Assembly: GCF_003334385.1 (NCBI RefSeq)
Contig: NZ_QOWN01000081.1
Source of the DNA: Escherichia coli
GTDB taxonomy: Bacteria > Pseudomonadota > Gammaproteobacteria > Enterobacterales > Enterobacteriaceae
Length of the DNA: 5,545 nucleotides
Reading direction: 5' to 3' (one strand)
Shown here one piece after another: positions 2,276 through 5,444 of this stretch; the first letter of the stretch is position 1, and each line of letters begins with the position of its first letter. Below the pieces are notes generated by a model, which saw nothing but the letters and a program-made list of their open reading frames with translations, searched no databases and was not told where the DNA came from. Made by a program: the position numbers and the translations under genes.

Positions 2276-2635
2276 TTATTTGCTATCGCGAATCCCTAAG
2301 CGTTGTAACAATCCGATAATCCCTTCCCGCAGAAGCAAGGATGTAAACTGTTTTTGTTCAACTGGCGTCATCTCTTTCGCCAGTGTCACCAGCAATACTT
2401 CAAGCGGCGCATCACCAGAAAGGGCAGGCGCTTCTCCCTGACCTTCTGGACGTTCAGCATTGCGAATATATTCACGAACCTGTTCATTGACGTGAACCAG
2501 TCGGGCTTTGCCACCCTGGACGCCAGGTTTTGGTGACGTTGTCCAGCCTTCCTTGCGTACCCATTTATTAATGGTCTGGCGGCTATAGCCGGTCAGTCTG
2601 GCAAGTTCATCTGGTGTCATCCTCTCCTTGAACAT
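2276..2635 (-). CDS. yfeC: small putative DNA-binding protein (helix-turn-helix, YfeC/YfeD family, DUF1323-like), 119 aa (114 aa if it starts at M6)
   Basis: A 119-codon ORF on the minus strand with a Shine-Dalgarno AGGGA 6 nt upstream of the ATG at 2635. An alternative start at M6 (2620) is preceded by AAGGAG at short spacing. The N-terminus (MTPDELARLTGYSRQTINKWVRKEGWTTSPKPGVQGGKARLVHV) is paralogous to YfeD. Confidence 0.85.
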   Translation of the reverse strand: MFKERMTPDELARLTGYSRQTINKWVRKEGWTTSPKPGVQGGKARLVHVNEQVREYIRNAERPEGQGEAPALSGDAPLEVLLVTLAKEMTPVEQKQFTSLLLREGIIGLLQRLGIRDSK

Positions 2636-2970: not shown

Positions 2971-3046
<76 letters not shown>

Positions 3047-3055
3047 AATTTCCAA

Positions 3056-3081
3056 CCCTCGCTGCAAAGCGGGGGTTTTTT
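3056..3081 (+). terminator. intrinsic terminator of the alaW-alaX operon
   Basis: Stem CCCTCGC (3056..3062) pairs with GCGGGGG (3069..3075) over 7 bp, including one G-U pair, around a 6-nt loop TGCAAA. It is followed by TTTTTT (3076..3081) and sits 10 nt after the alaX CCA. Confidence 0.8.
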
Positions 3082-3254
3082 GTCTCTGCTTTTTGCCGCT
3101 TTTGTAATACAGTCTACGTCCGGGTTAGTGCCGCCTGGTGAAAGCATCATTGGATGAAAAATCGGCAACAGGCTGGCCCCCTGTTTGCTTCGCGATGCGA
3201 ATAAACTTATTATTTGTGTGCCTGAAAACCCCGATCAGTGAGAGTAGTGTACTC

Positions 3255-5444
3255 ATGTTTGTGGAGCATAACCTGATAAAAAATATCAAGATATTCACAC
3301 TAGCGTTTACGCTCACCGTGGTACTTATTCAGCTATCCCGTTTTATTTCGCCACTTGCCATTATCCATTCCAGTTATATCTTTCTGGCGTGGATGCCACT
3401 GTGCGTAATGCTGTCAATCTTGTTTATCTTTGGCTGGCGCGGTGTCGTTCCCGTTTTATGCGGGATGTTTTGCACCAATCTGTGGAACTTTCATCTCTCT
3501 TTTTTACAGACTGCGGTCATGCTCGGTAGCCAGACGTTTGTCGTGTTGTGTGCCTGCGCAATATTACGCTGGCAGCTGGGGACGCGTTGGCGTTATGGAT
3601 TGACCAGCCGATATGTCTGGCAACGTCTGTTCTGGCTTGGTTTGGTGACGCCGATCGGCATCAAATGCAGCATGTATCTTGTGGGGAGCTTCTTTGATTT
3701 CCCGCTAAAGATATCCACCTTTTTCGGCGATGCGGATGCCATTTTCACGGTCGTTGATTTGCTAAGCCTTTTCACCGCTGTGCTGATTTACAACATGCTT
3801 TTCTACTATCTCACTCGCATGATTGTAAGTCCCCACTTTGCGCAGATATTGTGGCGCAGGGATATCGCTCCGTCGTTGGGCAAAGAGAAACGCGCATTTA
3901 CCTTAAGCTGGCTGGCAGCGTTAAGCGTGCTGCTACTTCTGTTGTGCACACCTTATGAAAACGACTTTATTGCCGGTTACCTGGTACCCGTTTTCTTCAT
4001 CATCTTTACCCTCGGGGTCGGTAAGCTTCGCTATCCGTTTTTAAATCTCACCTGGGCTGTTTCAACGCTTTACCTTCTGAATTACAACCAGAACTTTTTG
4101 CAAGGGGTGGAAACCGAATATTCGCTGGCATTTATTCTTGCGGTGCTGATTTCCTTTAGCGTTTGCCTGCTCTATATGGTGCGCATTTATCATCGCAGTG
4201 AATGGCTTAATCGCCGCTGGCATTTGCAGGCGCTGACAGATCCGTTAACGCTCCTACCCAACTTTCGTGCGTTGGAACAAGCGCCGGAGCAAGAGGCGGG
4301 CAAGAGTTTTTGCTGCCTGCGCATTGATAATCTTGAGTTTATGAGTCGTCATTACGGCTTAATGATGCGCGTTCACTGTATCCGCTCAATTTGCCGTACG
4401 CTGCTGCCGTTGATGCAGGAAAACGAAAAGTTGTATCAATTGCCGGGTAGTGAACTGCTGTTAGTGCTGAGCGGGCCGGAAACGGAAGGGCGACTCCAGC
4501 ATATGGTTAACATCCTGAATAGTCGGCAAATTCACTGGAACAATACCGGGCTGGATATGGGCTATGGTGCTGCCTGGGGGCGTTTTGATGGAAATCAGGA
4601 AACCCTGCAACCCTTGTTGGGGCAGTTAAGCTGGCTGGCGGAGCAATCCTGCGCACATCATCATGTGCTGGCGCTGGATAGCAGAGAGGAGATGGTTTCC
4701 GGGCAGACCACTAAACAGGTGCTATTGCTGAATACCATTCGCACGGCGTTAGATCAGGGTGATTTGCTGCTCTACGCCCAGCCAATTCGCAACAAAGAGG
4801 GTGAAGGTTATGATGAGATCCTCGCGCGACTGAAATATGACGGCGGCATTATGACCCCGGATAAGTTTCTGCCCCTTATTGCTCAGTTTAACCTTAGCGC
4901 GCGTTTTGATTTGCAAGTGCTGGAATCCTTGTTGAAGTGGCTGGCAACACACCCTTGCGACAAAAAAGGACCGCGCTTTTCAGTCAATTTAATGCCGCTC
5001 ACGCTGCTGCAAAAGAATATTGCCGGGCGGATTATTCGTCTGTTTAAGCGTTATCACATCTCCCCGCAGGCGGTCATTCTTGAGATCACCGAGGAGCAGG
5101 CGTTTTCTAACGCAGAAAGCAGCATGTACAACATCGAGCAGCTGCATAAGTTTGGTTTCCGGATTGCGATTGATGACTTTGGCACCGGATATGCCAACTA
5201 CGAACGGTTAAAGCGTTTGCAGGCTGATATCATCAAAATTGATGGCGTCTTTGTGAAAGATATTGTCACGAACACGCTGGATGCGATGATTGTGAGATCA
5301 ATTACCGATCTGGCGAAAGCGAAGTCATTGAGTGTGGTCGCGGAGTTTGTCGAGACGCAACAGCAGCAGGCGCTATTGCATAAGCTCGGGGTGCAATATC
5401 TGCAAGGGTATTTGATTGGTCGCCCGCAGCCATTAGCTGATTAA
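3255..5444 (+). CDS. pdeA: c-di-GMP phosphodiesterase: N-terminal multi-pass membrane (MASE-type) domain, degenerate GGDEF domain, EAL domain; 729 aa
   Basis: The long ORF ends at TAA 5442..5444. I chose the ATG at 3255 (MFVEHNLIKNIK...) because it gives the 729-aa length I recall for E. coli PdeA/YfeA. The frame is open back to a GTG at 3138 and an ATG at 3195, so the start is uncertain. The N-terminal roughly 320 aa are strongly hydrophobic, consistent with multiple transmembrane segments. The middle domain resembles GGDEF but has PGSEL (nt 4443..4457) where GG[DE]EF is expected. The C-terminal domain carries EAL-type motifs: EIL at 4815..4823 in place of EAL, plus EITEE, DDFGTGYA, KIDG, EFVE and QGYL. 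Confidence 0.88.
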   Translation: MFVEHNLIKNIKIFTLAFTLTVVLIQLSRFISPLAIIHSSYIFLAWMPLCVMLSILFIFGWRGVVPVLCGMFCTNLWNFHLSFLQTAVMLGSQTFVVLCACAILRWQLGTRWRYGLTSRYVWQRLFWLGLVTPIGIKCSMYLVGSFFDFPLKISTFFGDADAIFTVVDLLSLFTAVLIYNMLFYYLTRMIVSPHFAQILWRRDIAPSLGKEKRAFTLSWLAALSVLLLLLCTPYENDFIAGYLVPVFFIIFTLGVGKLRYPFLNLTWAVSTLYLLNYNQNFLQGVETEYSLAFILAVLISFSVCLLYMVRIYHRSEWLNRRWHLQALTDPLTLLPNFRALEQAPEQEAGKSFCCLRIDNLEFMSRHYGLMMRVHCIRSICRTLLPLMQENEKLYQLPGSELLLVLSGPETEGRLQHMVNILNSRQIHWNNTGLDMGYGAAWGRFDGNQETLQPLLGQLSWLAEQSCAHHHVLALDSREEMVSGQTTKQVLLLNTIRTALDQGDLLLYAQPIRNKEGEGYDEILARLKYDGGIMTPDKFLPLIAQFNLSARFDLQVLESLLKWLATHPCDKKGPRFSVNLMPLTLLQKNIAGRIIRLFKRYHISPQAVILEITEEQAFSNAESSMYNIEQLHKFGFRIAIDDFGTGYANYERLKRLQADIIKIDGVFVKDIVTNTLDAMIVRSITDLAKAKSLSVVAEFVETQQQQALLHKLGVQYLQGYLIGRPQPLAD

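Follow-up and report, generated by a model that had tools for sequence, protein, structure and literature searches.

A 729-residue start for Escherichia coli pdeA and a very probably accidental open frame across its proposed promoter and leader

Over-extension of a gene to the first start codon of its longest open reading frame is a common annotation artefact, met where the frame happens to be open into non-coding DNA upstream. The region 5' of pdeA resembles such cases, its upstream frame being open by chance with a length of 3 to 102 codons among relatives, and differs from the artefact seen elsewhere in that long versions of the allele studied here are absent from the databases searched. 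The PdeA protein of E. coli K-12 (YfeA, b2395; NP_416896.4, 729 aa) has the same start, length and MASE1/EAL architecture as the protein described here, with no difference at the locus. The closest described alternative is given by the profiled proteoforms (Meydan et al. 2019, 10.1101/520783; Weaver et al. 2019, 10.1101/511675), in which upstream in-frame starts likewise share a single frame. Unlike the proteoforms mapped with retapamulin or Onc112, the upstream candidates of pdeA are not conserved in frame, are located 5' of the mapped transcript start and lack a Shine-Dalgarno (SD) sequence. The functional papers on YfeA/PdeA contain nothing on its start codon, and the searchable text of the supplements of the TRAINSPOTTER N-terminomics and the Stringer et al. 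Ribo-RET studies has no entry for pdeA, yfeA or b2395. A sequence-only reading of the locus had chosen ATG 3255 as the start and regarded the choice as ambiguous. Our analysis indicates that PdeA is very probably translated from ATG 3255 as a protein of 729 aa, with the 208 nt between alaX and this ATG being non-coding and the upstream open frame accidental.

The window, which is the whole stretch of 5,545 nt that was analyzed (contig NZ_QOWN01000081.1), carries genes for tRNA-Lys and tRNA-Val on the minus strand in its 5' part, before gltX (415-1830). The gltX-lysV interval contains one tRNA-Val gene in the window versus three in MG1655. Between gltX and the tRNA-Ala genes are yfeD and yfeC, both on the minus strand. 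The two copies of tRNA-Ala(GGC) are on the plus strand, the first being alaW (2856-2931) and the second alaX (2971-3046; ARAGORN, Rfam and MG1655 annotation). A terminator scan places the intrinsic terminator of the alaWX operon at 3054-3081 on the plus strand, with a stem of 10 bp (3054-3077, six G-C pairs) and a T-run that reaches 3081, and alignments show its sequence to be kept across Escherichia and Citrobacter. The pdeA coding sequence (yfeA, b2395) occupies 3255-5444 on the plus strand, 729 aa plus stop, according to the open reading frames and the RefSeq annotation, and encodes a MASE1/degenerate GGDEF/EAL protein. Over 3040-3500, the sequence of E. coli K-12 and those of about 70% of 5,428 complete-genome records match the window without a single difference (100% identity). 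A search of the window with Rfam returned four tRNAs only, with no known riboswitch or sRNA in the pdeA leader.

The gene order yfeD-yfeC-(tRNA-Ala)-pdeA-nupC is shared by nine loci from seven genera, as judged from the called genes for a YfeC-like pair, pdeA and a nucleoside transporter, and this conserved synteny confirms the orthology of pdeA. It should be mentioned that a single-protein scan of genome contigs returned Escherichia only, and the other genera were obtained through exact-protein look-ups.

An open reading frame runs from GTG 3138 to 5444 on the plus strand and would encode 768 aa. GTG 3138, ATG 3195 and ATG 3255 share this stop-free frame and give 768, 749 and 729 aa, respectively; ATG 3195 is 19 codons and ATG 3255 is 39 codons past GTG 3138. 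TTG 3150 and GTG 3216 are additional in-frame start candidates; going 5' from ATG 3255, the first stop in the frame comes 42 codons away. The coordinates and the common frame that the sequence-only reading had given for the three main candidates all hold, its translated extension matches the window, and GTG 3138 is indeed 57 nt past the alaX terminator, measured from the end of the T-run at 3081. In 20,000 shuffles of the 208-nt alaX-pdeA intergenic region, the frame was open for at least 39 codons in 15-18% of cases, an in-frame start was present at least 39 codons upstream in 8-12%, and some upstream in-frame start was found in 55-64%. The open frame upstream of pdeA is no longer than chance gives.

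Comparison with orthologues argues for ATG 3255. Orthologues from seven genera have their Met1 aligned with the methionine encoded at 3255. Among the 120 best orthologue clusters, 51 have a length of 729 aa, which is the modal length, and their first residues align with MFVEHNLIKNIKIF. Citrobacter proteins begin with MPVKHNLI..., those of Salmonella with MPDKCNVLKNIKIF and those of Enterobacter with MNRKTYNNVKIF; in Lelliottia, Leclercia and Kosakonia, Met1 is likewise aligned. In six taxa an in-frame stop is found 3-16 codons 5' of the conserved ATG with no intervening start (E. whittamii, 9 codons; C. amalonaticus, 16; E. hormaechei, 6; Lelliottia, 4; Leclercia, 10; Kosakonia, 3), the sole start-like codon after the stop in Kosakonia being a TTG directly adjacent to the ATG. 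The open length 5' of the conserved ATG is 42 codons in the window, 32 in E. coli D3, O157:H7, AST85 and Escherichia sp. E1V33, 97 in JJ1886, 41, 27 and 9 in three other Escherichia lineages, and 3 to 102 in other genera. Such variability in open length is as expected of non-coding DNA.

The pattern of substitutions is consistent with the same start. When variable sites were counted by codon position in nine Escherichia sequences, the first 300 nt of the pdeA coding sequence gave 16/5/35 for positions 1/2/3 and no indels. The corresponding counts are 8/11/6 for 3138-3194 and 8/1/2 for 3195-3254, with indels of 1-2 nt present in both segments. Codon periodicity of the substitutions is therefore found from 3255 onwards only, and an N-terminally extended proteoform was rejected on the basis that the extension lacks third-position bias and carries indels of 1-2 nt. 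In the 729-aa protein, the Pfam MASE1 domain covers residues 16-315 (E = 1.4e-67), and Pfam gives no domain match in the extension 5' of ATG 3255. The earlier remark that the extension is not obviously a signal peptide or transmembrane segment was right, and the extension is no domain; MASE1 begins at residue 16 of the 729-aa form.

A further candidate lies within the accepted coding sequence. The start region AUGUUUGUG has a second start-like codon, GTG 3261 (Val3), 6 nt downstream of ATG 3255 and at a similar SD distance (-3.1 kcal/mol), and the true start could be placed there, two codons 3' of the ATG. We consider this very improbable, as Salmonella has GAT as its third codon, two of three Citrobacter have GTA or GTT, and the codon is not a start codon in Enterobacter, Lelliottia, Leclercia and Kosakonia either, where residue 3 is R, S, T and Y, respectively. 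The ATG at 3255, unlike codon 3, is invariant in all six of these genera.

The only strongly conserved block upstream of ATG 3255 in Escherichia, Citrobacter and Salmonella is 3184-3217, which is flanked by indels on both sides and contains none. We propose that this block contains the pdeA promoter on the plus strand. The -35 hexamer TTGCTT (3185-3190), proposed from its conservation, is invariant in 10 sequences of Escherichia, Citrobacter and Salmonella and stands at a fixed distance of 17 nt from the -10 hexamer. The proposed -10 hexamer TATTAT (3208-3213) is supported by the conserved block and by a mapped 5' end 6 nt downstream, and reads TATCAT in two Citrobacter. Compared to the sigma-70 consensus, TTGCTT matches at 3/6 positions and TATTAT at 5/6, with a spacing of 17 nt, which is below the threshold of the automatic promoter scan; the scan omits the pdeA promoter because the -35 hexamer matches at three positions of six.

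The offset between the v3 and v2 coordinates of MG1655 at pdeA is one that we take to be 1978. On the minus strand of NC_000913.3, ATG 3195 is at 2517892 and GTG 3138 at 2517949. Considering that ATG 3255 corresponds to 2517832 in NC_000913.3, the mapped 5' end RVS_(II)-2515890 (U00096.2) falls at about 2517868 in that version and at window position 3219 on the plus strand. This TAP-enriched 5' end is listed in the transcription start table of Romero et al. 2014 (PMC4681348), in which BW25113 was mapped on U00096.2. It belongs to class II, being TAP-enriched without a visible step in global RNA-seq, and comes from this one study (PMC4681348). The gene itself has low expression. The placement was checked with other entries of the same table. 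The alaWX start at 2516279/80 converts to 2829-2830, which is 6-7 nt after the TATGAT of a strong scanned promoter, and two entries that are 115 nt apart, as the tRNA genes are, map at most 5 nt from the alaX and alaW 3' ends. The end at 3219 is 6 nt past TATTAT, within the 5-9 nt expected of a -10 hexamer. No transcription start in the alaX-pdeA interval was found in the searchable text of the Cappable-seq, ROSE and RNA-seq compendium supplements. The 5' end at 3219 is probably the main pdeA start. It follows that the pdeA mRNA would begin 3' of both GTG 3138 and ATG 3195, with a leader of 36 nt (3219-3254, plus strand), although transcripts reading through the alaX terminator could contain the upstream candidates.

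GTG 3138 (3138-3140, plus strand), the 5'-most in-frame start candidate, was rejected. Its connection with the pdeA frame depends on a polymorphic run of cytosines at 3176-3180 (plus strand). The alignments show five Cs in the window and in K-12 and four in E. coli D3, O157:H7, AST85 and JJ1886, and the run is one base shorter also in four other Escherichia lineages; most E. coli and every outgroup have four bases at this site. An exact 65-mer with five Cs occurs in 2053 of 5106 matching records and the exact version with four Cs in 1678. Of the records that differ from the five-C query, 15 were sampled, and every one is 1-2 nt shorter. The fifth C is a derived 1-bp insertion that joins GTG 3138 to the pdeA frame, and GTG 3138 lies outside this frame in every outgroup and in some 60% of the complete E. 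coli genomes. GTG 3138 is also 81 nt 5' of the mapped end at 3219. The frame break at the C-run, the non-coding substitutions and the position of the 5' end rule out GTG 3138 as a conserved start.

A strain-specific role for GTG 3138 was considered separately. In strains with five Cs, this codon might be used on transcripts that read through the alaX terminator, yielding a lineage-specific PdeA of 768 aa. Some 40% of complete E. coli genomes have the frame open, and the SD-like pairing of GTG 3138 (-3.2 kcal/mol) is no worse than that of many real starts. However, the frame is owed solely to the derived insertion, the segment that begins at GTG 3138 has indels and no codon periodicity, and the codon comes after the strong alaX terminator and upstream of the proposed pdeA promoter and transcription start. 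No pipeline represented in a collection of about 15 billion proteins has called the 768-aa form from GTG 3138. We regard its use as extremely improbable and retain ATG 3255 as the start.

ATG 3195 (3195-3197, plus strand; 749 aa), located in the spacer of the proposed promoter, was also rejected as an in-frame start candidate. Among the lineages aligned, only E. coli and Escherichia sp. E1V33 have ATG 3195 and ATG 3255 separated by 60 nt. MOD1-EC7003, SCPM-O-B-8794, C. rodentium and a second Citrobacter have a separation of 59 nt, E. whittamii and C. amalonaticus one of 58 nt, and Salmonella one of 55 nt. Indels that are not multiples of three thus place ATG 3195 out of frame with pdeA in 7/9 non-coli lineages, and the indels between the two ATG codons cluster at 3219-3237. 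The 80 nt at 3186-3265 are identical in 4956 of 5428 records; within E. coli, ATG 3195 is always in frame, and the E. coli sequences alone would not suffice to exclude it. The frame-breaking indels and upstream stops of the relatives, the non-coding substitutions and the mapped 5' end, 24 nt downstream of ATG 3195, rule it out as a conserved start.

ATG 3195 might still be a genuine, possibly minor, start in E. coli, giving a 749-aa proteoform with the extension MRINLLFVCLKTPISESSVL. It is an in-frame ATG conserved in all E. coli examined, and the triplet is retained in most relatives. Against this reading, which we judge highly unlikely, are the loss of frame in the non-coli lineages, the location of the codon between the conserved -35 and -10 hexamers and upstream of the mapped 5' end, and the variation in 3195-3254, most of which is at 'codon position 1'. 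In addition, ATG 3195 has no SD (-1.5 kcal/mol), is in more structured RNA (-16.1), and its 749-aa product is absent from the collection of about 15 billion proteins.

Across Enterobacteriaceae, a comparison that the sequence-only reading had suggested as a check, neither GTG 3138 nor ATG 3195 stays in frame. The ambiguity it had seen is not real, since the indels, the upstream stops of relatives, the substitutions and the 5' end at 3219 exclude both codons. Its choice of ATG 3255 was right, as indicated by the conserved Met1 together with the frame breaks and the same three lines of evidence.

The translation signal of ATG 3255 is modest. GAGAG at 3240-3244 is separated from the ATG by a spacer of 10 nt, and its duplex with the 16S tail has an energy of -4.0 kcal/mol, which is equalled by 21% of the start-like triplets in the window. 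The SD of ATG 3255 is weak, as the earlier reading had remarked, and statistically not distinctive. ATG 3255 ranks first among six candidates in SD pairing and lies in the least structured RNA (-8.3), by a small margin. SD strength and local RNA folding separate the start candidates unconvincingly, and the case for ATG 3255 is not rested on them. In the leader, 3219-3237 is variable, with indels that are not multiples of three, and GTGAGAG (3238-3244) is the sole conserved and the sole SD-like element. Folding of the leader gave no significant structure (z = -0.02).

Taken together, these observations suggest an arrangement in which the 208 nt from alaX to the ATG begin with the alaWX terminator and a spacer that evolves fast. 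These would be followed by a conserved promoter of the sigma-70 type (TTGCTT-17 nt-TATTAT), by the start of transcription near 3219 and by the 36-nt leader. GTG 3138 is linked to the pdeA frame by a lineage-specific insertion of 1 bp in the C-run, and ATG 3195 would be kept owing to its place in the promoter spacer and its palindrome, not to start function. Initiation at ATG 3255 would depend on the weak SD within A/U-rich RNA that is free of structure. The segment 3138-3254 encodes nothing new, and the upstream open frame is real but ordinary.

The sequence-only reading had also expected that annotation pipelines may call different N-termini. For the allele of the window this is not the case: pdeA begins at 3255 in 6/6 RefSeq records inspected (MG1655 and five PGAP-annotated genomes), and the collection of about 15 billion proteins has the exact 729-aa PdeA on 191 contigs but none of the exact forms of 768, 749 and 742 aa. 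The expectation does hold elsewhere. Two deletions of 1 bp extend the open pdeA frame of B2-type E. coli back into alaX, and an 811-aa call, present on 56 contigs, begins inside the tRNA-Ala gene with an N-terminus, MQEVSGSIPLSST, that is translated tRNA. Calls of 737-811 aa are also found in Citrobacter and Enterobacter. Over-extension accounts for the deposited 737-811-aa versions from B2 E. coli, Citrobacter and Enterobacter, a part of which start within a tRNA gene.

The significance of the result is very small, as it confirms the already established 729-aa annotation of PdeA. The 117 nt before ATG 3255 are assigned to promoter and leader, which gives the proposed pdeA promoter and the 36-nt leader defined positions, and constructs, fusions and structure predictions of PdeA should begin at ATG 3255.

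ATG 3195 lies inside a palindrome, TTCGC-GAT-GCGAA (3189-3201; TTCGCGATGCGAA), which shows almost no variation between Escherichia and Salmonella. The sequence of a promoter spacer is normally free to vary. A near-invariant palindrome in such a spacer could be a repressor operator, and we put forward, as a speculative and on balance unlikely proposal, that 3189-3201 is a putative operator of a pdeA repressor and that ATG 3195 is conserved for this reason. If this were true, what looks like an alternative start codon would belong to a site that regulates a c-di-GMP phosphodiesterase. Obvious candidates for the repressor would be YfeC and YfeD, which are encoded next to pdeA in divergent orientation, since the published motif of YfeC is a TTC-rich inverted repeat. 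The main text of the YfeC ChIP-exo paper does not name pdeA among the targets.

Of 5428 E. coli records, 4956 carry an identical copy of the 80-nt segment at 3186-3265, which comprises the proposed promoter, the leader and the start of pdeA, whereas the adjoining 65 nt (3146-3210) are the same as in the window in just 2053 of 5106 records. There is thus a steep increase in conservation at the proposed -35 hexamer. Between this hexamer and the proposed -10 lies a palindrome, TTCGC-GAT-GCGAA (3189-3201), which is almost unchanged from Escherichia through Salmonella in the sequence alignment. Promoter spacers are variable as a rule. The palindrome may be an operator. The published motif of YfeC, the neighbouring regulator, consists of TTC-rich inverted repeats placed 6 nt apart; pdeA is absent from the YfeC targets named in the main text of the paper that describes this motif. 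It should be mentioned that the start codon of yfeC (2276-2635, minus strand) is ambiguous too, with a longest ORF of 119 aa and a PGAP call of 360 nt in one strain, while the gene in MG1655 RefSeq has 345 nt, corresponding to 114 aa.

Directly adjoining the -35 of pdeA is an inverted repeat, AACAGG-N7-CCTGTT (3167-3185), with the polymorphic C-run in its loop. When read on the minus strand, the repeat is followed by a T-run and obtains a terminator-like score in the terminator scan. In the alignment, other Escherichia show no more than loose conservation of its arms. Downstream of the promoter, a perfect small hairpin, GAGTA-GTG-TACTC (3241-3253), ends 1 nt short of the ATG at 3255 and overlaps the Shine-Dalgarno-like GAGAG. 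This hairpin is invariant across Escherichia and is not preserved in Citrobacter or Salmonella. The pdeA leader as a whole was found to fold no better than shuffled sequences.

At the other end of the window, a single tRNA-Val gene (81-156) is located between gltX and the tRNA-Lys gene (2-77), whereas MG1655 carries valU, valX and valY in this interval. A full-length match at 100% was obtained for just one of 5,429 records, E. coli strain AS19-RrmA- (NZ_CP027430.1). Based on this match and the single tRNA-Val gene, the window is not MG1655, although around pdeA it is identical to K-12.

Over-extended or truncated versions of pdeA are found in other genomes. In B2-type E. coli (JJ1886, locus L005, 1-514), the frame 5' of pdeA is open for 97 codons and reaches the tRNA gene alaX. 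An 811-aa protein, which starts inside the tRNA-Ala gene and reads through the tRNA terminator, has been deposited in NCBI, IMG, ENA and Logan from a source of 56 contigs; it is a mis-annotation that has been propagated. On one contig of a highly fragmented assembly (GCA_002924505.1, locus L022, 1167-1320), a deletion takes out the second tRNA together with the terminator and spacer and stops 1 nt short of the proposed -35. Because the lone tRNA-Ala is thereby fused straight to GTTTGCTTCGCGATG, a 714-aa protein starting within the tRNA is called. The junction may represent either a true deletion or an assembly artefact. In E. coli FELIX_MS533 (NZ_CP137696.1, locus L006, 1501-3183), an IS1 element lies 5 nt 5' of the pdeA ATG, at about window position 3249, and all that remains of the gene is a 705-nt 3' fragment annotated as a pseudogene; pdeA is therefore dispensable in this strain. 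A 631-nt contig of a 'Bacillus hominis' assembly (NZ_BOQD01000653.1) is, at the protein level, 100% identical to residues 17-226 of E. coli PdeA; almost certainly, this assembly is contaminated with E. coli DNA.
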